From: a virus
Lineage: Duplodnaviria; Heunggongvirae; Uroviricota; Caudoviricetes
Virus record (IMG/VR): IMGVR_UViG_2850808358_000001
DNA: 19,777 bases
Strand: one strand, 5' to 3'
Each line of letters begins with the position of its first letter. Position 1 is the first letter of the stretch. The position numbers and the translations under genes were made by a program. The notes under the pieces were generated by a model. That model had not been told where the DNA came from. It saw only the letters and a program-made list of their open reading frames with translations, and did no database searches. Positions 4,928-19,777 of the stretch are shown in pieces.

Positions 4928-5004
4928 TATAACTACGGTTATCCAAAGTAAAATAATAAAGGTTATTGCTATCTTTTATAACTTGGGTTATCCTTGGTTA
5001 TAAG
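4928..5004. promoter_or_regulatory. OR operator cluster with divergent pRM/pR promoters
   Basis: Palindromes ATAACTACGGTTAT (4929..4942) and ATAACTTGGGTTAT (4979..4991) plus related half-sites between divergent cI and cro. Confidence 0.6.
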
Positions 5005-5027
5005 TAATGGCTGAAAGAGGTATGCTC

Positions 5028-5252: not shown

Positions 5253-5259
5253 GTAACAC

Positions 5260-5305
5260 CGCTATTTTCACAATGGGCATTCGTCCTACGTCGCTGACAA
5301 AGCGA
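5260..5305 (+). promoter_or_regulatory. nutR (boxA-like CGCTATTTT at 5260..5268; boxB TCGCTGACAAAGCGA at 5291..5305)
   Basis: boxA/boxB arrangement directly downstream of cro; boxB core CGCTGACAAAGCG is identical to nutL. Confidence 0.65.
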
Positions 5306-5390
5306 GCCCCAAGATATCTGACCAACTAAGGCCATATGCGTTTCCATGCATACCTTTCAACTAACTATTCACTATTGGAAATCTTAAGAA

Positions 5391-5690
5391 ATGGAACAAA
5401 CAAGTTACAGCAAACTATCACAGCGCGACGTTGATCGCGCAGAAACAGATTTACTTATCAACCTGTCAACGCTTACACAGCGCGGTCTGGCAAAGATGAT
5501 TGGCTGCCATGAATCGAAGATCAGTCGTACCGACTGGCGGTTTATTGCTTCGGTCTTGTGTGCTTTCGGAATGGCATCAGACATCAGTCCGATTAGCAGG
5601 GCTTTTAAGTATGCGCTTGATGGACTCACCAATAAAAAACGCCCGGTGTGCAAAACCGAGCGTTCTGAACAAATCCAGATGGAATTTTAA
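5391..5690 (+). CDS. cII: CII-like transcriptional activator
   Basis: C-terminus LTNKKRPVCKTERSEQIQMEF closely matches lambda CII C-terminus as I recall it; HTH region present; position after nutR. Confidence 0.85.
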   Translation: MEQTSYSKLSQRDVDRAETDLLINLSTLTQRGLAKMIGCHESKISRTDWRFIASVLCAFGMASDISPISRAFKYALDGLTNKKRPVCKTERSEQIQMEF

Positions 5691-5712
5691 CAACATCCAA
5701 CGAGGTAATTAT

Positions 5713-5985
5713 ATGCGAAACAAAGGCTTTAATCCACCTGATACACACAAAGAAGCTAAGCGTTTGCGCTTCCTTCGTTCCATTGATGAAAGAACTCAAA
5801 TCTCTTTTGTGAAAGTTGCCAGAACTGAGCTTCTGAAAGCTGAGGCGAGGGCATTGCTCCCGTCTCTACCAAAAGAGGAGGGATATACGTTCATTCCAAA
5901 CGCATTTCTGGAAAAGCTGCTCAAAGAAGACATATCCGTAAGTCAGTTTAACGATGTTCTTAAGGTCTTTCGTCAAGGCAGGTAG
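5713..5985 (+). CDS. hypothetical protein (90 aa) between cII and the replication genes
   Basis: ORF MRNKGFNPPDTHKEAKRLRF...; GAGG SD 7 nt upstream of ATG 5713; stop overlaps the start of the next gene. Confidence 0.5.
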   Translation: MRNKGFNPPDTHKEAKRLRFLRSIDERTQISFVKVARTELLKAEARALLPSLPKEEGYTFIPNAFLEKLLKEDISVSQFNDVLKVFRQGR

Positions 5986-5987
5986 TG

Positions 5988-6872
5988 ATGAGCAATACAG
6001 CAAAAATCTACGATTTCAGCGCCGCACACGAGCGCAGGAGCAACAGGATGGAGAACCAGAAAACTGGTTACATTCCGTTGTACCGGAGCATTCTGAAACA
6101 GTCATGGGCGAAAGATGTTTATCTTCGCACCCTGTGGGAAAACCTTCTCCTGAATGCTGCCAGAAAGCCATACAAAGCGAATTTCAAAGGTCATGAATGG
6201 CATGTGCAACCCGGTCAACTGGTTGTGACAGCAGCTGATTTAGGTCTTCAGTTATGCGACAGGCATGGCAAGCCAGCAAGCCGTGATCAGGTTGAGCGGA
6301 TGCTTCAGGTTTTTGTGAAAGAGGGGATGATCTCCATTGATGGAGAGAAGCAAAAAGGTCGTGTGATCACCATCACAAATTACCATGAATATGCTCAAAA
6401 AATGGACAATTCACCCGCACATGAAGCCGCACAAACAACCGCACATCATGAACAAGAAGGTATTAACAAGAATATAAATAATATCTCTAATACTGACGTA
6501 TTAGAGAGTGCCACAGCAGACAAAAAGTCTGACAAGAAAAAACCTTCCGTTAGCTGTCAGGATGTTGTCGATGCTTACCACGAAATCCTTCCTGAAGCGC
6601 CAAGAATCCGCGCACTGAATGACAAGCGTAAAAACCAGATCCGAACGTTCTGGCGCAAAGCCGGAGTGATAACCCGCCAGCTTGACGGGCATGGGTTCAC
6701 GATGCAGGACTGGAGAAATTATTTGAGCTACGTAGGCGAAAATTGCCGATGGATGTTCGAAGAGCGCCCAAACCATCAGCGCGGAACCGTCTGGCACAAA
6801 AAGGGATTTGATTACCTGCTTAACGATAATACCTACCTGAAAGTTCGTGAGGGTGAACACGATGACCGATAA
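5988..6872 (+). CDS. replication initiation protein (O-like / P22 gene 18-like)
   Basis: 294-aa ORF directly upstream of and overlapping the DnaB-like helicase gene; position and size fit an initiator protein; family assignment from memory only. Confidence 0.7.
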   Translation: MSNTAKIYDFSAAHERRSNRMENQKTGYIPLYRSILKQSWAKDVYLRTLWENLLLNAARKPYKANFKGHEWHVQPGQLVVTAADLGLQLCDRHGKPASRDQVERMLQVFVKEGMISIDGEKQKGRVITITNYHEYAQKMDNSPAHEAAQTTAHHEQEGINKNINNISNTDVLESATADKKSDKKKPSVSCQDVVDAYHEILPEAPRIRALNDKRKNQIRTFWRKAGVITRQLDGHGFTMQDWRNYLSYVGENCRWMFEERPNHQRGTVWHKKGFDYLLNDNTYLKVREGEHDDR

Positions 6873-8298
6873 TTTTTATGCGCCGCCCCATAGCATCGAG
6901 GCAGAGCAGGCGGTGATTGGTGGATTGCTTCTGGATGATGACAGCAGTGAGCGCGTCCAGAAGGTTCTTGCGATGCTGAAGCCTGACTCATTTTACAGCC
7001 GGCCACACAAAATCCTTTTCGAAGAAATAACCAGAATGCACCGGGAGCAAAAGCCAGTAGATGGCCTGACGCTTTTCGATGAACTGGAGCGTAAATCGTT
7101 AACGGCGTCTGTTGGCGGTTTTGCTTATATCGCTGAGATCGCAAAGAACACGCCAAGCGCCGCAAACATCGTTGCCTATGCAATGCAGGTTCGCGAAACC
7201 GCAATGGAACGCTACGCCATCAACCGCATGACTGAAGCGACGGAATTGCTCTATTCCCGCAACGGAATGACTGCAACGCAGAAGTACGAAGCTATTCAGG
7301 CGATTTTCACGCAACTGACAGACCATGCAAAAACCGGATCACGTCGCGGCCTTCGCTCATTTGGTGAGGTCATGGAAGACTGGGTTAGCGACCTTGAGAA
7401 GCGTTTTGACCCGTCAGGCGAACAACGAGGAATGAGCACAGGGATCCCATCGCTGGACAGGATGCTGTCACCGAAAGGTCTGGTGAAAGGCTCTCTGTTT
7501 GTCATTGGCGCTCGCCCTAAGATGGGGAAAACGACGCTATACAGCCAGATGGCAATCAACTGCGCAGTGCATGAGAAAAAGCCCGCTCTGATGTTCAGCC
7601 TTGAAATGCCAGGTGATCAGATACTGGAAAAACTGGTAGGGCAGAAGTCTGGTGTTAACCCGAATATTTTTTACCTTCCGGCGACAAATGACGCCGATGA
7701 CGGCTATCAGGGTGATTACGATGGTGACTTCAACAGGGCGATCGAAACAGCCAATCGCTTGAGTGAAATCGACCTGCTTTACATCGACGACACGCCGGGA
7801 TTATCTCTGGCTCAAATCGTCAGCGAAAGCCGTCGAATCAAGCGAGAAAAAGGATGTGTTGGCATGATTCTGGTCGATTACCTGACACTAATGACCGCTG
7901 AAAAGGCCGATCGCAACGACCTTGCCTACGGCATGATCACCAAAGGACTGAAGAACCTTGCCAAAGAGCTTGATTGCGTTGTTGTGCTTCTGACGCAGCT
8001 TAACCGCGCACTGGAAAGCCGAACCAATAAACGCCCATTACCAAGTGACTCACGAGATACAGGGCAGATTGAACAGGATTGCGATTATTGGGTGGGGATC
8101 CATCGTGAAGGTGCTTTTGATGACAGTGTTCCACCTGGTGAAACCGAACTAATCCTTCGTCTCAATCGTCATGGCAATACCGGCACGGTGTATTGCATTC
8201 AGGCAAATGGAGCTATTTATGACACAGACCAACAGTCTGCTGAAATGCGCCGCCGTGAACGCGAGGAACCGCAGTCCAAGAAGAAAGGAGGATTCTGA
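6862..8298 (+). CDS. replicative DNA helicase (DnaB-like, P22 gene 12 type)
   Basis: N-terminal DnaB-like domain (PHSIEAEQAVIGGLLLD), Walker A-like GARPKMGKT, Walker B-like ILVDYL; ATG 6862 with GAGGG SD. Confidence 0.85.
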   Translation: MTDNFYAPPHSIEAEQAVIGGLLLDDDSSERVQKVLAMLKPDSFYSRPHKILFEEITRMHREQKPVDGLTLFDELERKSLTASVGGFAYIAEIAKNTPSAANIVAYAMQVRETAMERYAINRMTEATELLYSRNGMTATQKYEAIQAIFTQLTDHAKTGSRRGLRSFGEVMEDWVSDLEKRFDPSGEQRGMSTGIPSLDRMLSPKGLVKGSLFVIGARPKMGKTTLYSQMAINCAVHEKKPALMFSLEMPGDQILEKLVGQKSGVNPNIFYLPATNDADDGYQGDYDGDFNRAIETANRLSEIDLLYIDDTPGLSLAQIVSESRRIKREKGCVGMILVDYLTLMTAEKADRNDLAYGMITKGLKNLAKELDCVVVLLTQLNRALESRTNKRPLPSDSRDTGQIEQDCDYWVGIHREGAFDDSVPPGETELILRLNRHGNTGTVYCIQANGAIYDTDQQSAEMRRREREEPQSKKKGGF

Positions 8299-8378
8299 TG
8301 ACCATCTACATCACTGAGCTAATAACAGGCCTGCTGGTAATCGCAGGCCTTTTTATTTGGGGGAGAGGGAAGTCATGA
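8298..8378 (+). CDS. putative small hydrophobic peptide (26 aa)
   Basis: Not in the ORF track; ATG overlaps the helicase stop (TGATG) with AAGGAGGA SD 7 nt upstream; translation [26 protein letters not shown]; stop overlaps the ninB ATG (ATGA). Confidence 0.3.
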   Translation: MTIYITELITGLLVIAGLFIWGRGKS

Positions 8379-8815
8379 AAAAACTAACCTTTGAAATTCG
8401 ATCTCCAGCACATCAGCAAAACGCTATTCACGCGGTACAGCAAATTCTTCCAGACCCAACCAAACCAATCGTAGTAACCATTCAGGAACGCAACCGCAGC
8501 TTAGACCAGAATCGAAAGCTTTGGGCTTGCCTTGGTGACGTCTCTCGTCAGGTTGAATGGCATGGTCGCTGGCTGGATGCAGAAAGCTGGAAGTGTGTGT
8601 TTACCGCGGCATTAAAGCAGCAGGACGTTGTTCCTAACCTTGCCGGGAATGGCTTTGTGGTAATAGGCCAGTCAACCAGCAGGATGCGTGTAAGCGAATT
8701 TGCGGAGTTATTAGAGCTTATACAGGCATTCGGTACAGAGCGTGGCGTTAAGTGGTCAGACGAAGCGCGACTGGCTCTGGAGTGGAAAGCGCGATGGGGA
8801 GATCGGGCTGCATGA
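8375..8815 (+). CDS. ninB: NinB-like recombination protein
   Basis: [24 protein letters not shown]...; position after the replication genes matches lambdoid ninB; assignment from memory. Confidence 0.8.
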
Positions 8816-9501
8816 CTATCAAATCAAATACGCCAGCACACGACAAGGACTGCTGGCAAACGCCACTTTGGCTTTTTGATGCGCTGGATATTGAGTTTGG
8901 ATTCTGGCTGGATTCGGCAGCGAGCGACAAAAATGCTCTGTGCGCTCACTGGCTAACTGAGGCCGACGACGCGCTCAATTCTGAGTGGGTAAGCCACGGT
9001 GCAATCTGGAATAACCCACCGTACAGCAATATCAGGCCGTGGGTGGAAAAAGCCGCTGAGCAGTGTATACAACAGCGACAGACGGTAGTTATGCTTGTGC
9101 CAGAGGATATGTCAGTCGGATGGTTCAGCAAGGCTCTGGAGAGTGTTGACGAAGTTCGCATCATCACTGATGGACGGATTAATTTTATCGAACCATCGAC
9201 AGGGCTGGAGAAAAAGGGAAACAGTAAAGGCTCAATGCTGCTGATTTGGCGACCGTTCATCAGTCCCCGGCGAATGTTTACTACCGTATCCAAAGCGGCA
9301 TTGATGGCGATCGGGCAGGGCGGCATGAGGCGACAGCGACGAAGTATTACCGACATAATCTGTGAAAACTGCAAATACCTTCCAACGAAACGCTCCAGAA
9401 ATAAACGCAAGCCAATCCCAAAAGAATCTGACGTAAAAACCTTCAACTACACGGCTCACCTGTGGGATATCCGGTGGCTAAGACATCGTGCGAGGAAATG
9501 A
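8812..9501 (+). CDS. phage DNA N6-adenine methyltransferase (Dam-like) with an unusual basic C-terminal extension
   Basis: NPPYS motif (DPPY-type motif IV) and CWQTP...F.LD.AA pattern of phage Dam family; ATG 8812 overlaps the ninB stop; last ~55 aa are Lys/Arg-rich and atypical. Confidence 0.75.
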
Positions 9502-9542
9502 CTATTTATCCGGTGCGCCGCCAGAATGACGGCGCGGTGTGG

Positions 9543-9851
9543 TTAAACGAAGCGGATCTGGAGTTTTTTTCCAGTAGCGCGGGCGAATTTTTTTAGTGTG
9601 GCAAATGATGGGCCGCTGATACCTGATGCGAGATTACTTTCCATTCTGGTGATCGCGGTCGCTTTTGTTCCCATTCGCTCGGCAACTTCAGCCTGAGTTA
9701 AGCCAGCTTCTTTGCGTGCTGCCAGCATTTCATCAAGCAGTGCGAATTCGTCAGCGATAGCGTCGTATTCTGCTTTAAAAGCCGGGTCTTCCATCCATTT
9801 GGCTGCCATTTCGTCGTGTGTCATGGTGGGGAGAGTGCGTTTACCAGTCAT
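9543..9851 (-). CDS. HTH (XRE-family) antitoxin, HigA-like
   Basis: 102-aa ORF with HTH (GLTQAEVAERMGTKATAITRME); its ATG overlaps the toxin stop by 11 nt (ATGACTGGTAA); toxin-first gene order is typical of HigBA-type modules. Confidence 0.75.
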   Translation of the reverse strand: MTGKRTLPTMTHDEMAAKWMEDPAFKAEYDAIADEFALLDEMLAARKEAGLTQAEVAERMGTKATAITRMESNLASGISGPSFATLKKFARATGKKLQIRFV

Positions 9852-10170
9852 GCTTAACCTCCTTCATTCTGGTTTCAGCTTTCTTGCGTTCGGCTGGCGG
9901 TGTTTTCTGCGTTTTCTTTACAAAACTATGCAGCATGATGATGCGTTTCCCTGTCAGAGTGCAGTAAAAAACACGCGCGATCCCATCGTTGCCTTTAATT
10001 CTGAGTTCGAAAAGTCCGTCACCAAAGGCGCTGGTGTGAGGTTCTCCGAGATTGCTGCCATATATCTTCATACGTTCAACGAGATGTTGGTATCGGGCAC
10101 GCATACTCAATGGAAGCCGATCGACTTCCAGCCTTACATCTTCACTGTAGTATTCGATAGTGTAGTTCAT
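9841..10170 (-). CDS. RelE/HigB-superfamily toxin (Gp49-like)
   Basis: 109-aa ORF from MNYTIEYYSEDVRLEVDRLP...; size, toxin-first order and overlap with an HTH partner fit a type II toxin. The ORF track extends it to 10251 via an upstream start that I reject. Confidence 0.75.
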   Translation of the reverse strand: MNYTIEYYSEDVRLEVDRLPLSMRARYQHLVERMKIYGSNLGEPHTSAFGDGLFELRIKGNDGIARVFYCTLTGKRIIMLHSFVKKTQKTPPAERKKAETRMKEVKHDW

Positions 10171-10180
10171 AGGTATCAAC

Positions 10181-10196
10181 ATAACAAAATCGTTAT
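10181..10196. promoter_or_regulatory. palindromic putative operator upstream of the toxin gene
   Basis: ATAAC-AAAATC-GTTAT perfect inverted repeat 11..26 bp upstream of the toxin ATG, overlapping a candidate -10 region on the - strand. Confidence 0.4.
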
Positions 10197-10292
10197 ATGC
10201 ATTCAAGGCCTGTAGTTGACGACAACACATATCCGGGGCTATATTCCTCATACGCCAGCAAAATCTGGCGTCGGGATTGAGACCCCGGATGT

Positions 10293-10749
10293 TTACGGAG
10301 CGATATGAGACGCGCCCGCGTCTTTTTTCATATCGTTTGCACAGTCACATTCGCGATTTATGGTGGGCTGTGTGGGGGAGCCGAAACCGATAACCATTTC
10401 TTTGTTGAAGAGACAAAGCGAGCAGGCCAGTCCGATCGCGGTCCAACTGAGCCCCATTTCACGGGATTTTTCGGTAATACCATTCTCCCGATTGCTCCAG
10501 CGTTCCATAATCCAGTGGATCCACTCCTCCTGCTTAGGGAAGAGTAAAAACGGAATGGTCACCGGCAGGCCATAATCAATATTACGCGGGTCCGTTGTCA
10601 TGCCCCAGCCGATAATGAACTGAGCCGGGTTGGTACGGTAAAACTGTTTTAGTGCAGGCAATATTTCAGGATTCTGGCGAATGCGCTGTAGGCGTTCCAT
10701 CCGCCATTCAAAAACCATCTGGTAATCAGGATGTTTAAAATCGAAGGGT
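10293..10749 (-). pseudogene. large terminase subunit, N-terminal ATPase portion only; split by IS600 and 3'-truncated
   Basis: Frame ...[15 protein letters not shown]...[20 protein letters not shown]... resembles the N-terminal ATPase region of P22-like TerL; continuous in frame with the 6 codons at 12014..12030 across IS600 copy 2; stops after ~150 aa where a full TerL would be ~450-500 aa. Confidence 0.65.
10308..10328 (+). terminator. intrinsic terminator-like hairpin with T5 tract on the + strand
   Basis: AGACGCG..CGCGTCT stem followed by TTTTT; lies inside the 3' end of the truncated terL reading frame, suggesting foreign junction sequence. Confidence 0.45.
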
Positions 10750-10813
10750 TGAGGTAGCCTGAGTTTAACGGACACTCCTTCCTGAAATAGAATGGCATCA
10801 GAAGGAGCTAATA

Positions 10814-11116
10814 ATGAGCAGAAAAACCCAACGTTACTCTAAAGAGTTCAAAGCCGAAGCTGTCAGAACGGTTCTTGAAAATCAACTTTCGATCAGTGAA
10901 GGCGCTTCCCGATTATCCCTTCCTGAAGGCACTTTAGGACAATGGGTTACCGCCGCCAGAAAAGGGCTCGGTACTCCTGGTTCCCGCACGGTGGCTGAAC
11001 TGGAATCTGAAATTCTGCAACTGCGTAAGGCGTTAAATGAAGCTCGCCTTGAGCGAGATATATTAAAAAAAGCAACAGCGTATTTTGCACAGGAGTCGCT
11101 GAAAAATACGCGTTAA
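10814..11116 (+). CDS. IS3-family transposase OrfA
   Basis: Identical protein to copy 1 OrfA. Confidence 0.9.
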
Positions 11117-11151
11117 TCGAACAATGGCGACAACAATTTCCCATTGAAGCG

Positions 11152-11970
11152 ATGTGTCAGGTATTTGGTGTATCCAGGAGCGGTTATTACAACTGGGTAC
11201 AGCATGAACCCTCAGACAGAAAACAAAGTGATGAGCGGCTAAAACTGGAGATTAAGGTGGCACATATCCGCACTCGCGAAACATATGGAACCCGGCGGCT
11301 CCAGACGGAGCTGGCAGAGAATGGCATCATCGTTGGTCGTGACCGACTGGCACGTCTTCGTAAGGAGCTAAGGCTACGCTGTAAGCAGAAACGCAAGTTC
11401 AGAGCGACTACGAACCCGAACCACAATCTGCCAGTTGCGCCAAATCTGCTGAACCAGACGTTCGCTCCTACAGCACCAAATCAGGTCTGGGTGGCGGACC
11501 TGACGTATGTTGCCACACAGGAGGGATGGTTGTACCTCGCTGGCATCAAAGATGTTTATACGTGCGAAATTGTCGGCTACGCCATGGGAGAGCGCATGAC
11601 AAAAGAGCTGACAGGTAAAGCCCTGTTTATGGCGCTCAGGAGCCAGCGCCCACCTGCCGGGCTAATCCACCACTCTGATCGAGGTTCACAGTACTGCGCA
11701 TACGATTACCGGGTCATACAGGAGCAGTTTGGTCTGAAAACATCAATGTCGCGTAAAGGTAACTGTTACGACAACGCTCCGATGGAAAGCTTCTGGGGAA
11801 CGCTGAAAAATGAGAGCCTGAGCCACTATCGTTTTAATAACCGGGATGAAGCCATCTCAGTAATACGGGAATACATTGAGATTTTCTACAATCGTCAGCG
11901 TCGTCACTCTCGTCTGGGGAATATCTCCCCGGCAGCCTTCAGGGAAAAATATCATCAGATGGCTGCTTAA
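11152..11970 (+). CDS. IS3-family transposase OrfB (DDE domain)
   Basis: Identical to copy 1 OrfB except R14W (c to t at 11194). Confidence 0.9.
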   Translation: MCQVFGVSRSGYYNWVQHEPSDRKQSDERLKLEIKVAHIRTRETYGTRRLQTELAENGIIVGRDRLARLRKELRLRCKQKRKFRATTNPNHNLPVAPNLLNQTFAPTAPNQVWVADLTYVATQEGWLYLAGIKDVYTCEIVGYAMGERMTKELTGKALFMALRSQRPPAGLIHHSDRGSQYCAYDYRVIQEQFGLKTSMSRKGNCYDNAPMESFWGTLKNESLSHYRFNNRDEAISVIREYIEIFYNRQRRHSRLGNISPAAFREKYHQMAA

Positions 11971-12013
11971 AAAAAGAACAAATGGTAGTGTCCGCTATTG
12001 CCAGTACACCTCA

Positions 12014-12030
12014 GGGAATGGTAACGGCAT
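12014..12030 (-). pseudogene. first 6 codons of terL (MPLPFP), separated from the rest by IS600 copy 2
   Basis: ATG at 12030..12028 overlapping the terS stop region; joins in frame to 10749 when the IS is removed. Confidence 0.5.
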
Positions 12031-12032
12031 AC

Positions 12033-12587
12033 TTAGCCCATCATTTTTCTATACACCTCTGCGGCCTGCTCAGGCGTTAATTTGGTAATTTCTGTTCTGA
12101 CTGGTCCTCCGTCAGCGCCAGTCACTTCATTTTTGACGTTGTCTTTAAACGCCTGAACAGAAACATGACGCCCAAGCAACTCAAGGTTTTTAACCTTATC
12201 AGGCCATTTGATTTTCTTCAGAAGTGCGGTGCTATCTGCGGATACCATCTCCACGACATCCATTCCTGATAGCGTTGTGCGCCATACCTTAGGCCAGTCT
12301 TTAATGGGCTTTAGCTCACCGTTTTGCAGGAGAATGTCGAGCACATCCATCTGGTCGATTTCAACCAATCTACGAAGAACATAGGCGGCATCTATACCCG
12401 TCTGCTCAACGCGGGCGGATTTAAGTTCAGCAACGAATTTTTGAACATTAACATTTGCTAATAATCGAGATGCCTGCTCATTGGCGGTCTTCTCGCTGTA
12501 GCCCGCCCTGATAGCTGCCTGTGTGCCGTTCAGATCTTTCAGGTACTCACGGGCAAACAGCTCTTGTTTGTCGGTGAGCTTTGCCAT
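12033..12587 (-). CDS. terminase small subunit
   Basis: 184-aa ORF MAKLTDKQELFAREYLKDLNGTQAAIRAGYSEKTA...; HTH-like N-terminus typical of small terminase subunits; immediately upstream of terL. Confidence 0.75.
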   Translation of the reverse strand: MAKLTDKQELFAREYLKDLNGTQAAIRAGYSEKTANEQASRLLANVNVQKFVAELKSARVEQTGIDAAYVLRRLVEIDQMDVLDILLQNGELKPIKDWPKVWRTTLSGMDVVEMVSADSTALLKKIKWPDKVKNLELLGRHVSVQAFKDNVKNEVTGADGGPVRTEITKLTPEQAAEVYRKMMG

Positions 12588-12688
12588 TATTTGTGCTCCG
12601 TTTATCCGTTAAAAGGGATATCAGTTAAGTTATCCCGTGTAGGGTATAAGCCATTATCAAGCCCACCAGTAGATGGGCTTTGTAATGG

Positions 12689-12946
12689 CTACTTCGCTTT
12701 TGCTTCCGCTCGCTTACGCCGGCGCTCTTCTTTCCTCTCGGCTTTTGCCATGTCCATGAATGTCTGCATGATCGAGTTCCGCATCATGTAGCTAACAAAG
12801 TGATGATTGACACAGCCGTTGAGGCGCAGCTGCTCGCCAAACTCATCCACCGAGGCCAATGCTTCCATCATGCCCTTCTCGCCTTTCATGAACTCTGAGA
12901 AGTCGCGCCCCGCTCTGGAGGCGCATTCAATGACACGATCACTCAT
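12689..12946 (-). CDS. hypothetical protein (85 aa) with basic C-terminus
   Basis: ATG overlaps the stop of the KilA-N gene (ATGA coupling); C-terminal ERKEERRRKRAEAKAK; no family recognised. Confidence 0.5.
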   Translation of the reverse strand: MSDRVIECASRAGRDFSEFMKGEKGMMEALASVDEFGEQLRLNGCVNHHFVSYMMRNSIMQTFMDMAKAERKEERRRKRAEAKAK

Positions 12947-13440
12947 CCCGGAAGCCCGGGGATCGTTATCTGCAGCTGGTTAGCCAGGGAGTTAATCTCA
13001 GCGACCAACACTGGCTTCGTATAGCGCCATGCCGCCAGCCCTTGTCCACAGAAGCTCGCCATATCTTTTTTCTGATCAAACTCATGACACTTCATATTGA
13101 GCTGCGCACTTAAGCTGTTGCGATGCTGAAGTTCTCCGGTGAAGTAGTCATCCAGGACTTTATAGGCTGCATATTTAAATCCGGGGTTTAGCCATGCTGC
13201 ATAATCATAAGCAACAAACTTCCCGCCATATGTTCCACCGTGTACACCGCGCTCAGTAAAAACCACAGATTCGTGGTTTTTCTCCAGCTCGGCTAAGAAC
13301 TCTTTGGTCTGCTTGTTTCGCAGGTAGTGGTACGGAGATTCAGATTCACTTTTACCACTGGCTTTCCACATATCAGTGAGGCAGATCATTCCTGATTCAT
13401 CAACACGGATCGGTGTATTAAAAAGCGTGATTGCTTTCAT
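12943..13440 (-). CDS. KilA-N domain protein
   Basis: Pattern ...KQTKEFLAELEK...TERGVHGGTYGGKFVAYDYAAWLNPGF... fits the KilA-N DNA-binding domain signature as I recall it. Confidence 0.7.
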   Translation of the reverse strand: MKAITLFNTPIRVDESGMICLTDMWKASGKSESESPYHYLRNKQTKEFLAELEKNHESVVFTERGVHGGTYGGKFVAYDYAAWLNPGFKYAAYKVLDDYFTGELQHRNSLSAQLNMKCHEFDQKKDMASFCGQGLAAWRYTKPVLVAEINSLANQLQITIPGLPG

Positions 13441-13588
13441 GGCGTCTTTACCTTTTAGAAAGATGAGCCTGTTCGCACAGAAAAGCCGTCCCCGAGATGG
13501 TCGCCACCATATACGGCAATTCTCAGGCTCAGCTTTCTGAAAGACTCGGGGTTTATATGCGCTGCGATGCGCGGTTTACTGCGGACAT

Positions 13589-13612
13589 ATAAAAGCCCCG
13601 CAAGTGCGAGGC
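13589..13612 (-). terminator. terminator-like hairpin downstream of Rz/Rz1
   Basis: Minus strand GCCTCGCA-CT-TGCGGGGC (one mismatch) followed by TTTTAT. Confidence 0.45.
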
Positions 13613-13645
13613 TCATTAAATGGACTTTGTGATTTGCAAAAAAAT

Positions 13646-14113
13646 TTATTTCAGGCACTGAGTCCTGATGTACTCCTGAAGCATTCTCAATGCTGTCTGG
13701 TCGCTGATGATTCCGTCCCGGATACCGAGAACGTTTCGTCCAGCAACTGGAGAGAGTTCGACGGTGGCATCATTGCCCATGCCGGAGGCGCTGGAGGTTT
13801 CGGCTGAGGATGGCACAGGGCATTTTCCTTTGACGAGCACCCGACCACCATTATCAAGCTTGCGCCGAAGAGCATCATTTTCAGCTTTCGCATTGGCTAA
13901 CTCCTTCGTGTATTTAGCATCGAGTGCATCAGCAGCACGCTGGCGCTGCTGCATGTCAGTAATGGTTGCGTTCGCCAGCTTCAGTTCTCTTGCGTTTTTG
14001 TCGCGCTGCTCTTTGTAGGTAATGGCGTTATCACGGTAATGATTAACAGCCCATGACAGGCGGACGATGATGCAGATAACCAGAGCGGAGATAATCGCGG
14101 TGACTCTGCTCAT
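13646..14113 (-). CDS. Rz: Rz i-spanin
   Basis: [17 protein letters not shown]...[11 protein letters not shown]...[18 protein letters not shown] closely resembles lambda Rz; ATG overlaps the R stop (ATGA). The ORF track starts 4 codons earlier at 14125. Confidence 0.85.
13687..13893 (-). CDS. Rz1: Rz1 o-spanin (lipoprotein) embedded in the +1 frame of Rz
   Basis: [21 protein letters not shown]... with lipobox-like VVGC and Pro-rich PKPPAPPAW, like lambda Rz1; fully inside Rz in another frame. Confidence 0.6.
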
Positions 14114-14607
14114 TGCTGCCCCCACAAACAGACTTCACGCTCAATCTCACGACGGGTCATCAGCCCTTTCCATTGCTTACCGCCAGCATATGTCCAGCGA
14201 CGTAGCTGGTCACATGCGCCTTTGATATCGCCCTGGTTTATTTTGCGAAGAAGCGTCGATGTTCTGAAATTGCCAGCGCCCACGTTGTAAACGAACGAGT
14301 AAAGAGCGCCGCGCGTTGTTTCCGGTATATCGACTTTGATGTACGGGTTAATTTGTCTGGCGACAGTGGCAAGGTCTTTATTCAGGAGAGCTTTGCATTC
14401 TGCTTCGGTATACGTTTTACCAGGCATGATGTCTTTTCCGGTGTGTCCGTGACATACAGTCCATACACCAATGATATCTTTGTATGGTATGTAGCTGACA
14501 CCTTCCAGACCATCGTTACCACCTGGGCCAGTGATTAACACAGATGCTATAGCAACAGCCCCGCCACCAATAGCAACTGCAACAGCCTTGCGTAATGATG
14601 GCGACAT
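14110..14607 (-). CDS. R: SAR endolysin (phage-21 R type lysozyme)
   Basis: N-terminal Gly/Ala-rich signal-anchor-release segment ([18 protein letters not shown]) followed by a lysozyme domain; near-identical to phage 21 R as I recall it. Confidence 0.9.
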
Positions 14608-14822
14608 TATTCACCTCTCGCAGCCTTACGCTTGTCTTCTCTTAATTTGAAATACAGATTCGTCAGATAAGTCAGAAGCCCCAGAAGCAGACTTCCCAGC
14701 ACACCAATCGCAGCCCACTGTGATGGACTGACCTGATCCAACCACTGCAAAAACCAGTAGCCGGCACTGCCGGCGGAGGTGCCGTAGGCAATGCCCGTTG
14801 AAATTTTGTCCATGGATTTCAT
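14607..14822 (-). CDS. S: pinholin (phage-21 S type) with dual-start motif MKSM
   Basis: 71-aa [47 protein letters not shown]...; two TM segments; GGAGG SD upstream; start overlaps the R gene. Confidence 0.9.
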
Positions 14823-14937
14823 AGCCTCACCTCCGCAAATAACGGATGGCGTAGTTCTTATATTGGAAGGGAAAAAAAAGGCCGCAGCGTAACTGTCACT
14901 GATGAATTCAGGATAGCCAGTGGCTACGGCTCAGTTA

Positions 14938-15013
14938 TGGTGCTGGTTAACGGACTTGAACCGCTACCCATTCGCTTACAAGGCGACTGCTCTACCATTA
15001 GAGCTAAACCAGC
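14938..15013 (-). tRNA. phage-encoded tRNA, anticodon read as UGU (tRNA-Thr), CCA encoded
   Basis: Manual fold of the minus strand: acceptor GCUGGUU/AACCAGC, D-arm GCUC/GAGC with GG loop, anticodon loop CUUGUAA, T-arm with UUCAAGU loop, 3' ACCA; one non-WC pair at the top of the anticodon stem. Confidence 0.6.
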
Positions 15014-15018
15014 ATATT

Positions 15019-15093
15019 TGGCGGGACAGCGTGGACTCGAACCACGATAAGAAGGTTAACAGCCTTCCGTAATGACCTTTATACGACTGACCC
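15019..15093 (-). tRNA. phage-encoded tRNA, anticodon read as GUU (tRNA-Asn), CCA encoded; may be degenerate
   Basis: Manual fold: T-arm CGUGG-UUCGAGU-CCACG perfect, anticodon stem GAAGG/CCUUC perfect with loop CUGUUAA; acceptor and D stems each carry one mismatch. Confidence 0.5.
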
Positions 15094-15125
15094 AAATAAA
15101 AAATCCCGAAAGCAGGCTCTATTCC
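15094..15125 (-). terminator. putative tR'-like terminator region (U-tract) ending the short pR' transcript
   Basis: Minus strand ...AGAGCCTGCTTTCGGGATTTTTTATTT about 180 nt downstream of pR'; resembles the lambda tR' 3' end as I recall it, but I could not fold a clean stem. Confidence 0.35.
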
Positions 15126-15282
15126 TATGTGCTCTCGAGTTTATGATGCGCATGTCAGTGCGCTTAGCGAAAAACGCCGTAAACCCTCGCCCGACAGGGC
15201 GGGGAGCAGTCACAACTTAAAGATGAGGTGGGTAAAAAACCGAAAGAATGTGAACGGATATAAACCTGCCATTCTTGAGTCA

Positions 15283-15311
15283 AATTTACCCAACTTTATT
15301 CAAAAAGTCAA
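15283..15311 (-). promoter_or_regulatory. late promoter pR' with qut-like region
   Basis: Minus strand TTGACT-N17-TAAATT followed by TTGACTCAAGAATGG; closely resembles lambda pR'/qut as I recall it; located ~40 bp downstream of Q. Confidence 0.65.
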
Positions 15312-15353
15312 TATCATGCCGTTAAGATATTGCCATCCATGGCAATCATGCCG

Positions 15354-15977
15354 CTAACGTGTGACCGCATTCAAAATGTTGTCTGCGATTGACTCTTCTT
15401 TGTGGCATTGCACCACCAGAGCGTCATACAGCGGCTTAACAGTGCGTGACCATGTGGGTTGGGTGAGGTTTGGGATTAGCATCGTTACAGCGCGATATGC
15501 TGCACTTGCTGGCATCCTTGAATAGCCGACACCTTTGCATCTTCCGCACTCTTTCTCGACAACTCTCCCCCACTGCTCTGTTTTGGCTATATCAACTGCC
15601 AGACCTGTTCCGTGGCAATCTCTGCATCTTGCGCCCGGCGTCGCGGCACTACGGCAATAATCCGCATAAGCGAATGTTGCGAGCACTTGCAGTACCTTTG
15701 CCTTAGTATTTCCTTCGAGCTTTGCCACACCACGGTATTTCCCCGATACCTTGTGTGCAAATTGCATCAGATAGTTGATAGCCTTTTGTTTGTCGTTCTG
15801 GCTGAGTTCATGCTTACCGCAAAATGCAGCCATTCCGAATCCGGCTTGTGATTGCGCCATCCCCATAGCAGCCATCACATCAGTACCGGAAAGAGAGTCA
15901 GAAGCCGTAGCCCGTGGTGAGTCGCTCATCATCGGGCTTTTTGGCGAATGAAATTTAGCTACGCTTTCGAGTCTCAT
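15354..15977 (-). CDS. Q: antitermination protein Q (Cys-rich type, as in phage 82/21-like Q)
   Basis: 207-aa ORF with CRDCHGTG...CGRCKGVGY zinc-binding-like motifs; directly upstream of pR'; ATG overlaps the upstream gene stop. Confidence 0.7.
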   Translation of the reverse strand: MRLESVAKFHSPKSPMMSDSPRATASDSLSGTDVMAAMGMAQSQAGFGMAAFCGKHELSQNDKQKAINYLMQFAHKVSGKYRGVAKLEGNTKAKVLQVLATFAYADYCRSAATPGARCRDCHGTGLAVDIAKTEQWGRVVEKECGRCKGVGYSRMPASAAYRAVTMLIPNLTQPTWSRTVKPLYDALVVQCHKEESIADNILNAVTR

Positions 15978-16162
15978 CGTCTTCCCCTCTTGCCCTGTTT
16001 GACCATCAGGACGCCGTTAACTATTACGTGACGCTCGCCTTTGCTGTCTCGGTTGTACTTGAGCACTGTTCCTCTTGCGCAGGAAAGCATCCTCGCCACT
16101 TCGGTCTGATTGCCTCGTGTCTGGATAAGAAGCTCTGGTATCGTTTGAATTGTGGCGTTCAT
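15974..16162 (-). CDS. small nin-region protein (62 aa), possibly DNA-binding
   Basis: ORF MNATIQTIPELLIQTRGNQTEVARMLSCARGTVLKY...; translationally coupled (ATGA overlaps) with rusA upstream and Q downstream. Confidence 0.5.
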   Translation of the reverse strand: MNATIQTIPELLIQTRGNQTEVARMLSCARGTVLKYNRDSKGERHVIVNGVLMVKQGKRGRR

Positions 16163-16521
16163 ACGTTCTCCAGTTCGGTGATTTTTATTCCAAGCCTTCC
16201 GCCTGGTACTTTCACACCACGAATTACGCGAATGTCATCGAATTGCTCGTCGTCTTCCGCAAATCCGGCGTGGATAAGAGAGTCGAGTAGCCCCTTCAGG
16301 ATGTTGTCGAGGTCGCGGCGGCGGGAGTCTGGAACGTCTGCGATGACTTTGATGCGGAGTCGTGCTTTGGTGAAAATATCTAACTTGAGTTGGCGGATGA
16401 TTTGCTGAACGTCTTTTCGGTATTTCTGGCCTTTATCGCTGATGTAGTATTGGCTTCCCCGTCTTCGCCAGTAGGTGTTCAGCGACGGTGGGTATGGAAG
16501 CACAAACTGATATTCGTTCAT
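16159..16521 (-). CDS. rusA: RusA Holliday-junction resolvase
   Basis: Motifs PPSLNTYW and DSRRRDLDNILKGLLDSL match the RusA family signature. Confidence 0.85.
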   Translation of the reverse strand: MNEYQFVLPYPPSLNTYWRRRGSQYYISDKGQKYRKDVQQIIRQLKLDIFTKARLRIKVIADVPDSRRRDLDNILKGLLDSLIHAGFAEDDEQFDDIRVIRGVKVPGGRLGIKITELENV

Positions 16522-16808
16522 GGCTTAATCTTCCCCTCCTTCAGCAGTATCGCCTGCGTCCTGATCACGCCTTCGAGGTGGTAAAGTCTGGCGTCTTTGT
16601 TGTCGAGGTTATGGGTGCGTCGGTCGATTTCATCGTGACACGCGCTACAAGCCCATGCGCCGATCAGGTCGTCAGGCTTCATTCCCGTTCCGCAAATTCC
16701 AGCCATCCGGTAATGTGCCAGAACTGTAGTTTCAGGATTGCCATTGCATACGCCGTAAATACGTACCTGGCATTCTCTGCCGCGCGCTTCTTTGCGTAAG
16801 TTAGCCAT
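16518..16808 (-). CDS. YbcO-like nin-region protein (DUF1364-type, Cys/His-rich putative nuclease)
   Basis: MANLRKEARGRECQVRIYGVCNGNPETTVLAH...CSACHDEIDRR resembles DLP12 YbcO as I recall it; GGAGG SD; upstream of rusA as in DLP12. Confidence 0.75.
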   Translation of the reverse strand: MANLRKEARGRECQVRIYGVCNGNPETTVLAHYRMAGICGTGMKPDDLIGAWACSACHDEIDRRTHNLDNKDARLYHLEGVIRTQAILLKEGKIKP

Positions 16809-17536
16809 TAAGCAGCCTCCCCTGTTACTTTCAGCATTCCGTTATAGAGCAGCTTTCTGGTCAGCCACTGTTGGCCACGCCCGGTGATTTTTGTGGTGAA
16901 CGATATCTGTATTCCGTGATTTGTGTTGACTGCTGTTTCTTTCACTGTGAAATAGCCGCGATCCATATATTCCTGCATTGGCACATTGCGCCGGGAACCT
17001 GAAGCAATAAGGATTTTGTGATCGCGCATCCACGCAAACAGTTTGTTTGGACCAATTCCAACAACCTTTGCAAAGTTTCCAATCAAAATTCCGCTGGCCT
17101 CGCTAACGCGATCGGCAAACTCAACTTTAGGTGCTGCGAGAGCAAGCTGTTTCTCCAGTTCAGCCTTCTGGTCTTCAAGGTCGGCCGCAAGGCGCAATGC
17201 CTCAGAAAAGGTTTGTGGGATTTTCGCGGTTGCCCCTTCAAGCTCTCGCCAACGGTCAACAAGACGAGCGGTGAATTCCGGCGACAACTGGGCAACGACA
17301 ATAATGCTGTCGCGCTTACCTTGTTCGCCTTCGAAGACGTAATGCTCGTACTGAACATTGAACCCTAAGTTATTGATTCTTTCGGAAACCTCAAATTGAG
17401 GATGCCGGATAACACCATTTTTAGCCAGCGTTTCGATGGTACGTTTCACATTGTCATGACGCTTACCCACCAACTCAGCGATTTCAATGCTGGTCATTTT
17501 GATGGCGTTGCTATTTATCAGCTCGTTCATTGTCAT
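16808..17536 (-). CDS. phage antirepressor (Rha-type N-terminal domain plus Ant-like C-terminal domain)
   Basis: N-terminus ...MTSIEIAELVGKRHDNVKRTIETL matches the Rha family signature; the likelier start is ATG 17530 (GAGG SD at 8 nt) rather than 17536. Confidence 0.75.
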   Translation of the reverse strand: MTMNELINSNAIKMTSIEIAELVGKRHDNVKRTIETLAKNGVIRHPQFEVSERINNLGFNVQYEHYVFEGEQGKRDSIIVVAQLSPEFTARLVDRWRELEGATAKIPQTFSEALRLAADLEDQKAELEKQLALAAPKVEFADRVSEASGILIGNFAKVVGIGPNKLFAWMRDHKILIASGSRRNVPMQEYMDRGYFTVKETAVNTNHGIQISFTTKITGRGQQWLTRKLLYNGMLKVTGEAA

Positions 17537-17553
17537 GTCCTCTCATATTGAAA

Positions 17554-17575
17554 ATTCAGCAATAAAAAACCCAGC
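17554..17575 (-). terminator. rho-independent terminator
   Basis: Minus strand CCCAGC-TTCG-GCTGGG hairpin followed by TTTTTT; downstream of the ORF ending at 17605. Confidence 0.6.
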
Positions 17576-17604
17576 CGAAGCTGGGTCGTTGCGTTGGCAA
17601 TCTG

Positions 17605-17976
17605 TCAGTAGTGATGTAGTGAAGGAGGTAATTCTTTGTTCTTAAGTCTTACCCATGCAGAAAGATTCGTTGGTCCGTCTGGCTCATTAATATCAACATC
17701 TCGTGTGTGATTGATTAAAACGTCTCTCGCCATTCCGATAACATACGAGAACTCATGACCGTAGTCGTGGCATCTGCCGGAATAGTTAGACTGAATTTGT
17801 CTTAGCGCCGGATACAGTTCGCGGAATAATGCCTGTGAGCGGTTGGCATAATCCCACAACCATACCAGACTGTTTGCATCTTTTGCAGAAAGCTCGCTGG
17901 TTTTCTTCTCGTGATGACCTGCGCTTTTCGAAGTCTGGCTGAAATAGCAGTCTTCCAGTTTTTCGAACACGTCCAT
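17605..17976 (-). CDS. hypothetical protein, or C-terminal part of a frameshifted ORF6N-domain gene
   Basis: 123-aa [17 protein letters not shown]... overlapping by ~175 nt the other open frame that continues from the ORF6N domain. Confidence 0.4.
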
Positions 17977-18281
17977 GCCTGATCGGTTTCGAGCATCTTC
18001 GCGTGACGGGCTGCGCCTCGTTCTGTCCAGAGGATGAGCGAGCGGGCATTTTTACCAACTAACCCGATTGTTTCGGGTCTGTTCTTAAACTCGCGTAATT
18101 CGTTTTTTTCAATTTTAAAGTAATGCTTTCCTACCACGAATCGCATCGTGTTGTTCAGAAAATTATCAGAAATGTTTTTGATTTTTGTTCCGTATAACTG
18201 CGCCAGAAGTTCAGTTGTAATAACGGGGATCTGGTTGTGGGTGATTGCAGGAAGAGTGTCGACAGAAATTTGAGTGAGCAT
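17802..18281 (-). CDS. ORF6N-domain (antirepressor-like) protein
   Basis: ...[15 protein letters not shown]...NISDNFLNN...[14 protein letters not shown]...[24 protein letters not shown] fits the ORF6N-type domain pattern; ATG 18281 with GGAG SD; the ORF track extends the frame into IS600 because the IS end is open in that frame. Confidence 0.55.
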
Positions 18282-18409
18282 AACGATAACTCCGTACATT
18301 TGGTCATTATCGCCACCTTCTGGTCTCAATAATCTGGTGGCGAGCTGAGGTAGCCTGAGTTTAACGGACACTCCTTCCTGAAATAGAATGGCATCAGAAG
18401 GAGCTAATA

Positions 18410-18712
18410 ATGAGCAGAAAAACCCAACGTTACTCTAAAGAGTTCAAAGCCGAAGCTGTCAGAACGGTTCTTGAAAATCAACTTTCGATCAGTGAAGGCG
18501 CTTCCCGATTATCCCTTCCTGAAGGCACTTTAGGACAATGGGTTACCGCCGCCAGAAAAGGGCTCGGTACTCCTGGTTCCCGCACGGTGGCTGAACTGGA
18601 ATCTGAAATTCTGCAACTGCGTAAGGCGTTAAATGAAGCTCGCCTTGAGCGAGATATATTAAAAAAAGCAACAGCGTATTTTGCACAGGAGTCGCTGAAA
18701 AATACGCGTTAA
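18410..18712 (+). CDS. IS3-family transposase OrfA
   Basis: Identical protein to copies 1 and 2. Confidence 0.9.
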   Translation: MSRKTQRYSKEFKAEAVRTVLENQLSISEGASRLSLPEGTLGQWVTAARKGLGTPGSRTVAELESEILQLRKALNEARLERDILKKATAYFAQESLKNTR

Positions 18713-18747
18713 TCGAACAATGGCGACAACAATTTCCCATTGAAGCG

Positions 18748-19564
18748 ATGTGTCAGGTATTTGGTGTATCCAGGAGCGGTTATTACAACCGGGTACAGCA
18801 TGAACCCTCAGACAGAAAACAAAGTGATGAGCGGCTAAAACTGGAGATTAAGGTGGCACATATCCGCACTCGCGAAACATATGGAACCCGGCGGCTCCAG
18901 ACGGAGCTGGCAGAGAATGGCATCATCGTTGGTCGTGACCGACTGGCACGTCTTCGTAAGGAGCTAAGGCTACGCTGTAAGCAGAAACGCAAGTTCAGAG
19001 CGACTACGAACCCGAACCACAATCTGCCAGTTGCGCCAAATCTGCTGAACCAGACGTTCGCTCCTACAGCACCAAATCAGGTCTGGGTGGCGGACCTGAC
19101 GTATGTTGCCACACAGGAGGGATGGTTGTACCTCGCTGGCATCAAAGATGTTTATACGTGCGAAATTGTCGGCTACGCCATGGGAGAGCGCATGACAAAA
19201 GAGCTGACAGGTAAAGCTCTGTTTATGGCGCTCAGGAGCCAGCGCCCACCTGCCGGGCTAATCCACCACTCTGATCGAGGTTCACAGTACTGCGCATACG
19301 ATTACCGGGTCATACAGGAGCAGTTTGGTCTGAAAACATCAATGTCGCGTAAAGGTAACTGTTACGACAACGCTCCGATGGAAAGCTTCTGGGAACGCTG
19401 AAAAATGAGAGCCTGAGCCACTATCGTTTTAATAACCGGGATGAAGCCATCTCAGTAATACGGGAATACATTGAGATTTTCTACAATCGTCAGCGTCGTC
19501 ACTCTCGTCTGGGGAATATCTCCCCGGCAGCCTTCAGGGAAAAATATCATCAGATGGCTGCTTA
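18748..19564 (+). pseudogene. IS3-family transposase OrfB inactivated by frameshift
   Basis: G-run is GGG at 19391..19393 where copies 1 and 2 have GGGG; the ORF stops prematurely at 19401 (217 aa instead of 272). Confidence 0.8.
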
Positions 19565-19608
19565 AAAAAAGAACAAATGGTAGTGTCCGCTATTGCCAGT
19601 ACACCTCA

Positions 19609-19777
19609 CCCTGACGTATACCCACAGACGACCCGTTTTCGTCTTTCCGTTCCCCGGGGCCAGTACTTTCACCGGAGTGTCATCTGCGTGCACCTTTCCT
19701 GCCTCCAGAACATAGTCATTCAGCGCTATATACAGAGGACGGAGTTTGTCTGCCATTTCTGATACCCAGCGCACCAT
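19609..19777 (-). pseudogene. IS66-family transposase fragment, interrupted by IS600 copy 3 and running off the window
   Basis: Frame ...HADDTPVKVLAPGNGKTKTGRLWVYVR ends exactly at the IS600 terminus; motif typical of IS66-family transposases. Confidence 0.6.

Follow-up and report, generated by a model that had tools for sequence, protein, structure and literature searches.

An intact tRNA-Asn/tRNA-Thr cassette of the phage 21 type in the late leader of a prophage remnant, and the probable substitution of nuclease-cleaved host tRNAs

The two tRNA genes that lie between the late terminator tR' and the lysis genes of the viral sequence analysed here (IMG/VR record IMGVR_UViG_2850808358_000001; 19,777 nt, referred to as the window) form, by every feature tested, the late-leader tRNA cassette of phages 21 and Sf6. 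As to its role, we consider it quite likely that this intact cassette provides a tRNA-Thr that acts as a nuclease-insensitive substitute for the host tRNA encoded by thrU, and its tRNA-Asn probably acts likewise. The pair is already known: both genes have been annotated in other phages, and a mechanism has been described for tRNA-Thr.

Two tRNA genes in the late leader

When the whole window was searched with ARAGORN exactly two tRNA genes were returned, both on the minus strand, and Rfam agrees with this result, both matches scoring above the RF00005 gathering score of 29 (Table 1). The two RNAs show the cloverleaf of bacterial elongator tRNAs, with stems of 7, 4, 5 and 5 bp. The order of transcription is tRNA-Asn, a spacer of 5 nt, and tRNA-Thr. 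These results bear out most of the sequence-only reading, which had recognised two phage-encoded tRNA genes on this strand; the anticodons that it had read by hand folding, UGU (Thr) and GUU (Asn), are those called by ARAGORN, the encoded CCA is present at both gene ends, and the placement after tR' and before S agrees with a lambda-like pR' and the hairpin and U-tract of tR' upstream and an S21-type holin gene downstream. Its boundaries needed a correction: the interval given, 14938..15125, is right at the 3' end of the pair, but on the other side it is 32 nt too long: it passes the 5' end of tRNA-Asn and takes in U-tract and 3'-arm sequence of tR'. Likewise, the tRNA described as the second one does have the mismatches reported for its acceptor and D stems, but this tRNA is tRNA-Asn, the first to be transcribed.

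tRNA-Asn carries all the conserved loop and tertiary nucleotides (U8, A14, G18G19, U33, G53-U54-U55-C56, A58, C61 and the 3' CCA), and tRNA-Thr carries the same ones except A14, which is U here and C, U or G in the family. The identity set of the E. coli AsnRS, G34, U35, U36 and G73, is present in tRNA-Asn (loop CUGUUAA, discriminator G); that of the ThrRS, G1-C72, C2-G71, G35 and U36, is present in tRNA-Thr (acceptor stem GCUGGUU/AACCAGC, loop CUUGUAA). Judged by sequence, both are intact elongator tRNA genes.

Table 1. Features of the late region of the window, in the order of transcription
Feature	Position	Strand	Description
Q, late antiterminator	15354..15977	-	lambda type, 207 aa; Pfam PF03589 Antiterm, E 3e-57
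pR', late promoter	15283..15311	-	TTGACT, 17-nt spacer, TAAATT
tR'-like intrinsic terminator	15094..15139	-	hairpin with 10-bp stem 15139..15105, then A + UUUUUUAUUU; RNA fold of leader
tRNA-Asn(GUU)	15019..15093	-	75 nt, CCA encoded, discriminator G73; ARAGORN (gtt); Rfam RF00005 55.3 bits, E 1e-9, full-length model match
tRNA-Thr(UGU)	14938..15013	-	76 nt, CCA encoded, discriminator A73; ARAGORN (tgt); Rfam RF00005 63.2 bits, E 7e-12, full-length model match
Conserved hairpin	14930..14881	-	between tRNA-Thr and holin gene; fold -37 kcal/mol, z = -3.6
U8 run	14879..14872	-	after the hairpin; hairpin and run span 14872..14930
S, class II (S21-type) holin	14607..14822	-	first gene of the lysis cassette; Pfam PF04971
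R, lysozyme	14110..14607	-	Pfam PF00959
Rz	13646..14125	-	Pfam PF03245

The same Q gene is named 'antitermination protein' in E. coli FDAARGOS_943 and 'late gene regulator Q' in phage HK446. Downstream of it, pR' is the only sigma-70-like site detected in 14500..16100, and its counterpart in an alignment with HK446 is a promoter that carries the annotation 'similar to coliphage lambda PR' with 2bp mismatch'. The leader between pR' and tR' is approximately 190 nt long; its start and its last ~35 nt, which correspond to a lambda-type tR', align with HK446, and the middle is unrelated. The U-run that ends tR' (UUUUUUAUUU) stops at position 15094, the base that precedes tRNA-Asn. On the other side of the pair, the conserved hairpin and the U8 run that follows it look like a terminator in the window, and a terminator scan flagged the inner part of this hairpin. 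Phage 21, HK446 and Sf6 all keep the hairpin next to the tRNAs, and conservation reaches 62 nt past tRNA-Thr in 67 loci; the hairpin variants show one-sided or wobble changes only, with no compensatory pairs, hence no structural claim is made for it beyond its fold. An Rfam search of 14820..15360 at a permissive E-value found the two tRNAs and nothing else, which leaves the downstream hairpin and the leader without a known family.

From this anatomy we infer the steps of expression. Transcription would start at pR' and, without Q, would mostly halt at tR', the U-tract of which directly adjoins tRNA-Asn; once Q is present, RNA polymerase would pass tR', both tRNA genes and the downstream hairpin and proceed into S-R-Rz. 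RNase P, together with exonucleolytic 3' trimming to the encoded CCA, would then excise the tRNAs from the late mRNA leader.

A portable cassette of enterobacterial phages

The tRNA-Asn of the window is identical (75/75) to that of phages 21, Sf6, L and HK446, and its tRNA-Thr matches that of phages 21, Sf6 and HK446 in 75 of 76 positions, the sole difference being a U for C at position 14, in the D loop. As a unit, the 156-nt pair is 99.4% identical to that of HK446 and of further Escherichia phages. Searches found it in 54-61 phage records, whose hosts are Escherichia, Shigella, Salmonella and, in a few cases, Klebsiella. Among 5426 complete E. coli genomes 347-369 contain it, four with 100% identity. 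Its genes bear the names tRNA-Asn and tRNA-Thr in the records of phage 21, Sf6 (as 'similar to phage 21'), SfI, BTP1, Kapi1, mEp506 and others, and it has been discussed in the genome papers of SfI (PMC3636060), phage L (PMC8022706) and phage 21. A pattern scan of species-representative genomes returned three loci, i.e., Escherichia sp. E1V33 and two probably mis-binned MAG contigs, and says little beyond a restriction to enterobacterial phages.

In 67 loci the shared block extends from 10 nt upstream of tRNA-Asn, in the U-tract of tR', to 62 nt past tRNA-Thr, and identity collapses outside it. The block is joined to a tR' of either the phage 21 or the lambda type, and to differing holin genes. 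These sharp edges and varied partners indicate a portable cassette of approximately 230 bp. The window shares with the phage 21/Sf6-type cassette the near-identity of the genes, the order Asn, 5 nt, Thr, the start at the U-tract of tR' and the hairpin before the holin gene. The identity to host genes is only 58% for tRNA-Asn (versus E. coli asnT) and 66% for tRNA-Thr (versus thrU), and therefore the phage tRNAs are not recent captures of host genes.

Comparison with individual phages shows how the surroundings vary. Phage 21 (OL657228) has the same gene order, the same spacer length, the start at the U-tract of tR', the downstream hairpin and an S21 holin; however, it has Q21 with its own pR' and QBE and a short leader, with 91 nt from Q to tRNA-Asn, in contrast with the lambda-type Q and the 260-nt gap of the window. 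Position 14 of its tRNA-Thr is C instead of U, and one base of the spacer differs (AAACA versus AAATA). HK446 (JQ086372) shares with the window the lambda-type Q, the lambda-like pR' and the end of a lambda-type tR' fused to the cassette, but in addition to its unrelated leader middle it has a lambda-type S holin and lacks a U-run after the downstream hairpin, where the window has the S21 holin and U8. In the GenBank record of HK446 the tRNAs are unannotated. The same cassette occupies the same slot in Sf6, SfI, P22-like phages (BTP1, SPN9CC and others) and phage L/ST64T. These phages have podovirus or myovirus backgrounds and holins other than that of the window; L/ST64T differs, besides, in the anticodon arm of its second gene, a 72-nt gene called Leu(UAA) instead of Thr(UGU).

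Other tRNA genes resemble the cassette in position or in anticodons. The array ileZ-argN-argO of Stx phages (933W-like; Stx2a_WGPS6) also opens the late transcript, after Q, pR' and tR', so that the analogy with Stx phages drawn from the sequence holds as to position; however, that array reads Ile, Arg, Arg and has stx, not S, directly after it, whereas the window has GUU and UGU and no stx, and position is all that they have in common. The Stx2a phage WGPS6 retains, directly after tR', a 5' stub of approximately 25 nt of the cassette tRNA-Asn, and this points to a replacement of one array by the other. Both anticodons of the cassette are also found together in N4 and in the P1-like phage RCS47, where the two genes are adjacent. 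The tRNA-Thr of N4 is ~86% identical to that of the window over 87 nt, with the same acceptor stem; nevertheless, the genomic context in RCS47 and N4 is unrelated, and their Asn genes are not homologous to that of the window beyond general tRNA features.

Fixed mismatches in the stems

tRNA-Asn has two non-canonical pairs, U4·U69 in the acceptor stem and U13·U22 in the D stem, and tRNA-Thr has a G27·A43 mismatch atop the anticodon stem as well as U14 where tRNAs normally carry A. Three non-canonical pairs and the replacement of the nearly universal A14 could be taken as signs of decaying genes, and the tRNA with mismatched acceptor and D stems had been considered possibly degenerate in the sequence-only reading. 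The family was examined in an alignment of 28 distinct variants, from viral contigs and phages, in which pairs were counted against both cloverleaves. Standard pairs occupy 92.6% of the cells, versus 29-50% when the partners are slid by 1-3 columns, and seven pairs have changed on both sides, versus 0.9 ± 0.9 in shuffles, none of which (0/500) reached seven. The compensatory pairs are 6-67 (A-U to G-C), 7-66 (G-C to A-U) and 28-42 (A-U to C-G) in tRNA-Asn, and 3-70, 5-68, 6-67 and 51-63 in tRNA-Thr. U4·U69 is unpaired in 27 of the 28 variants, and U13·U22 and G27·A43 in all of them. The mismatches are thus fixed while the flanking pairs covary; they are constant features of a constrained family, not decay. 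Pairs 13-22 and 27-43 are, besides, often non-Watson-Crick in genuine tRNAs. Furthermore, the identical mismatches are found in the viable phages 21, Sf6 and HK446, the tRNA-Asn is the same in these and in phage L, and the Thr alleles of phage 21 and HK446 work in vivo. That the genes are degenerate pseudo-tRNAs is thus highly improbable, and the suggestion is discarded on the identity to copies in viable phages and on the covariation.

tRNA-Thr and the P2 OLD nuclease

[quoted passage not shown] Govande et al. (NAR 2025) demonstrated that cleavage of host tRNA-Thr(UGU) is how P2 OLD, the effector of P2-lambda interference, kills, and that cells are rescued when coliphage Thr(UGU) tRNAs take over from the cut host tRNA, the rescue by related Thr alleles being anticodon-dependent (PMC12445682). 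In that work the 'tRNA-Thr21' of phage 21, which we equate with the cassette gene from the text of the paper and the phage 21 genome record, protected against P2 OLD and resisted cleavage in vitro; its G27·A43 is a published determinant of resistance to the tRNase, and C28U/G42A was tested as a substitution that alters the CNG motif (PMC12445682).

In the tRNA-Thr of the window, residues 27-31 are GUCGC and residues 39-43 are GCGAA, which gives G27·A43, UCG at 28-30 and CGA at 40-42. U28-A42 takes the place of the host C28-G42 and alters the paired CNG motif; the family shows no variation in this arrangement. The sequence features of a P2-OLD-resistant tRNA-Thr, i.e., the UGU anticodon, the loss of the 27-43 pair and the altered paired CNG at 28-30/40-42, are all present, and resistance would result from the altered cut motif together with a stem shortened by G27·A43. 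Resistance to OLD or rescue is known for the alleles of phage 21 and HK446, both with C14; the U14 allele of the window would be expected to behave like them.

A recent preprint reported that the Thr(UGU) of HK446 counters P2 OLD (bioRxiv 10.64898/2026.07.10.737580), and ARAGORN finds a single Thr(UGU) gene in HK446, which is the cassette gene. The same preprint indicates that viral Thr(UGU) alone rescues neither lambda nor recB cells from OLD toxicity, that HK446 also encodes Oad2, a protein that inhibits OLD, and, in the view of its authors, that the tRNA of HK446 may instead be an adaptation to temperate life (bioRxiv 10.64898/2026.07.10.737580). A single tRNA thus falls short of complete escape.

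tRNA-Asn and PARIS

The tRNA-Asn of the cassette probably does for host tRNA-Asn, a secondary target of AriB, what tRNA-Thr does for thrU, replacing it in like manner. Belukhina et al. (2025) showed that Lys(UUU) and Thr(UGU) of the host and, to a lesser degree, Asn(GUU) are cut by AriB between residues 40 and 41 within U36-A-A-U39-C40; that U39A in tRNA-Lys abolishes the cleavage; that further parts of the tRNA are read too; and that full rescue from PARIS needs the T5 versions of the Lys, Thr and Asn tRNAs (PMC12409363). Residues 36-41 are UAAGCG in the tRNA-Thr of the window versus UAAUCA in the host, and UAACCU in its tRNA-Asn versus UAAUCC. Both tRNAs lack the U39 context of AriB, which is compatible with resistance although sequence does not prove it. 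The host tRNA-Asn also fits the substrate rule of P2 OLD by its paired CNG motif and A37, and the tRNA-Asn of the window has neither a paired CNG motif nor U39. The cassette shares with T5 two of the three anticodons needed against PARIS, and its tRNA-Thr has G39 as in T5 (UAAGC); however, T5 (Lys/Thr/Asn) and T4 (Thr) carry large arrays expressed early or in the middle of infection, in contrast with the two genes in the late leader of a temperate phage seen here, and the cassette has no tRNA-Lys, the prime target of AriB.

Several observations temper this reading of tRNA-Asn. Klebsiella-type variants regain CNG/CNG in the anticodon stem (GCAGG/CCUGC), and the tRNA-Asn of the P1-like phage keeps a host-like UAAUCA; both weaken it. 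A third point against it is that identity between phage and host tRNAs is only 58-66%, so that general divergence would account for the differences at positions 28, 39, 41 and 42; those at 39 and 41 were discounted as a sign of selection, because whole anticodon stems differ. It is with considerable doubt that we raise the possibility that the cassette is a two-tRNA anti-defence kit, in which tRNA-Asn is a nuclease-insensitive replacement and not a passenger.

Codon usage and other readings of the locus

A role in translation could account for the tRNAs with no link to defence, if they topped up the host pool for codons that are over-used in the late genes. ACA makes up 12.5 per 1000 codons in the late genes of phage 21 (20 morphogenesis genes; odds ratio 2.3, P 1e-7 versus K-12) and 14.6 per 1000 in the seven ORFs of the prophage piece in the window (P 1e-3 versus K-12), in comparison with 5.4 per 1000 in 42 E. 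coli K-12 genes; these phage gene sets thus use ACA 2.3 to 3.2 times more often than E. coli genes. For SfI, values of 17.3 versus 7.1 were reported for ACA, with the same split verdict between Thr and Asn (PMC3636060), and 24 of the 25 Asn codons of the phage L capsid gene are AAC (PMC8022706). The comparison of the anticodons with late-gene codon usage that had been called for therefore comes out for Thr but not for Asn, whose codons are not enriched in the late genes of phage 21 with respect to K-12 (37.7 versus 37.7 per 1000, P = 1); moreover, the major capsid gene of phage 21 has one single ACA. Extra host tRNA-Thr(UGU) gives little or no protection against OLD, whereas the phage alleles are protective (PMC12445682; bioRxiv 10.64898/2026.07.10.737580), and hence sequence matters, beyond dose. 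As the sole reason for the cassette, codon supply fits Thr and fails for Asn, and we regard it as improbable; it nevertheless overlaps with substitution of the cleaved host tRNA, because rescue operates through the decoding of ACA.

The state of the prophage raises a different objection. The cassette lies in a 6.3-kb piece (12014..18345) between two 1264-bp copies of IS600, in the order P22AR', Ant, RusA, NinH, Q, tRNAs, S, R, Rz, KilA-N, terS; no terL, head or tail genes were found in this piece. IS600 cuts the prophage off after terS, Q is without its upstream early operon, and a second prophage piece in the opposite orientation (1201..10749) contains N, a cI-like repressor, O, a DnaB-like P and nin genes. 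The locus is thus a prophage remnant, probably in an IS600-rich chromosome of the Escherichia/Shigella type; among complete E. coli genomes none covers more than 34% of the window. The genes could accordingly be intact passengers that are no longer transcribed and are useless to the cell: the morphogenesis genes are missing, the piece is split from the early region with the cI-like repressor, N, O and P, and tR' lies directly upstream, with no other promoter found in 14500..16100. On the other hand, Q, pR', tR', both tRNAs and S-R-Rz are all intact, and identical copies in other genomes indicate that decay has not begun. The pR' of lambda is constitutive, and tRNAs are stable, so that the product of a leak through tR' could accumulate. 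In the study of the BTP1 lysogen 'the two tRNA genes' are excluded from the prophage genes listed with TPM > 100, which implies that both exceed 100 TPM, though BTP1 induces spontaneously (PMC7067206). We judge silence of the genes to be unlikely on balance, and the cassette may have some activity in the truncated prophage. Still less can be said for the idea that the tRNA makes up for a host tRNA gene that the inserting prophage had damaged. Fragments of tRNA genes occur at the att sites of many prophages, and the attP of HK446 is thrW-like. Such a compensation has been suggested for HK446 in the OLD preprint (bioRxiv 10.64898/2026.07.10.737580); however, these are full-length genes that lie ~14 kb from attP in the HK446 late leader, show only the low identity to host genes given above, and have the anticodon UGU instead of the CGU of thrW, and the same cassette is found in phage 21, whose attP adjoins an icd-like (isocitrate dehydrogenase) pseudogene. 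Position and sequence rule this idea out, and we give it practically no credence.

Implications

The finding of the two genes adds nothing in itself, and the role of tRNA-Thr comes from the peer-reviewed work of 2025 and the preprint of 2026. If the cassette were indeed a two-tRNA anti-defence kit, this would explain why unrelated coliphages, namely the phage 21 family, P1-like phages, N4 and T5, share the combination of Asn(GUU) and Thr(UGU), and why U4·U69 is so strictly retained in the acceptor stem of tRNA-Asn. In that case, the two flanking terminator-like elements could let a leak through tR' yield the tRNAs without the lysis proteins, and lysogens and prophage remnants, including that of the window, could stay protected. 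The G27·A43 of tRNA-Thr, a determinant of resistance, offers in turn a worked example of how an 'imperfect' stem of a phage tRNA can be a functional part.

Conserved features of the tRNA-Asn and tRNA-Thr genes

The U4·U69 mismatch in the acceptor stem of tRNA-Asn (15019..15093, - strand) is retained in 27 of the 28 distinct variants of the phage 21-type pair that were aligned from viral contigs and phages. Another phage tRNA-Asn lineage found in viral contigs (GGGTCAGAAGCAC...) has this mismatch too; its acceptor stem, GGGUCAG/CUGUCCC, is the same as that of the window tRNA-Asn, whereas its D, anticodon and T arms are different. Position 14 of a tRNA is usually an A, which pairs with U8; in the phage 21-type tRNA-Thr family this residue is C, U or G, and never A. 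The U14 of the window tRNA-Thr (14938..15013, - strand) is a minority allele, also carried by E. coli FDAARGOS_943/944, EC32 and 19AR0254.

Asn(GUU) and Thr(UGU) genes also occur together in P1-like phages, N4 and T5. The four phage Thr(UGU) genes (phage 21 type, P1-like, N4 and T5) all have G39, in contrast with the U39 of the host gene thrU; likewise, U39 is absent from three of the four Asn genes of the same phages.

Location of the features described in the text
Feature	Source	Position	Strand
Hairpin of ~60 nt, directly 3' of tRNA-Thr	Window	14872..14930	-
Equivalent hairpin	Phage 21 (L001)	3120..3185	
Equivalent hairpin	HK446 (L139)	35253..35318	
Second tRNA, annotated Leu(UAA), 72 nt	Phage L (L004)	1294..1365	
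5' part of tRNA-Asn gene, ~25 nt	Stx2a phage WGPS6 (L132)	911..934	
Asn(GUU) + Thr(UGU), adjacent	P1-like RCS47 (L137)	1425..1578	
Asn(GUU) + Thr(UGU)	N4 (L138)	1337..1586	
Asn(GUU) + Thr(UGU)	T5 (L136)		
IS600, three identical copies in one orientation	Window	<1..1200, 10750..12013, 18346..19609	

A hairpin that accompanies the pair

The hairpin that follows tRNA-Thr accompanies the two tRNAs in 67 loci, and its degree of conservation equals theirs. A U-run behind it gives it the look of a terminator in the window and in phage 21; in contrast, the hairpins of HK446 and Sf6 lack this run. No Rfam family was detected for it in a permissive E-value search of 14820..15360, and no compensatory changes were found in it among the variants.

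Genes around the cassette

The IS600 copies divide the window: one interval (1201..10749) holds prophage DNA of the early region, the other (12014..18345) prophage DNA of the late region in inverted orientation. The ORFs 10293..10775 and 17802..18371 start within the IS ends, therefore they are 5'-truncated genes. An isrK-like Hfq-binding sRNA (10252..10328, + strand; 70.6 bits in Rfam, threshold 50) adjoins a RelE/Gp49-type toxin and HTH pair (9543..10251, - strand). Dam methyltransferase and NinE domains are both found in a single ORF of 249 residues (8752..9501, + strand); in the related prophage of E. coli FDAARGOS_943 they are encoded by separate genes.

Versions of the cassette in other phages

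In HK446, ARAGORN detects both tRNA-Asn and tRNA-Thr (35097..35252); its GenBank record has no annotated tRNA, and a 2026 preprint on the OLD nuclease describes a 'single' Thr(UGU) gene in this phage (bioRxiv 10.64898/2026.07.10.737580). The second tRNA of phages L and ST64T has the acceptor stem and T arm of the phage 21-type tRNA-Thr, whereas its anticodon arm is shorter and different; such a tRNA could be a derivative that has been remodelled or is defective. In Stx2 phages whose Q, pR' and tR' are of the phage 21 type, the initial ~25 nt of the tRNA-Asn gene persist directly behind the terminator, as seen in WGPS6, in Nil2 and in other Stx2 phages. This segment is followed by unrelated DNA and then by ileZ-argN-argO; the remnant looks like the scar left when one tRNA array was replaced by another.
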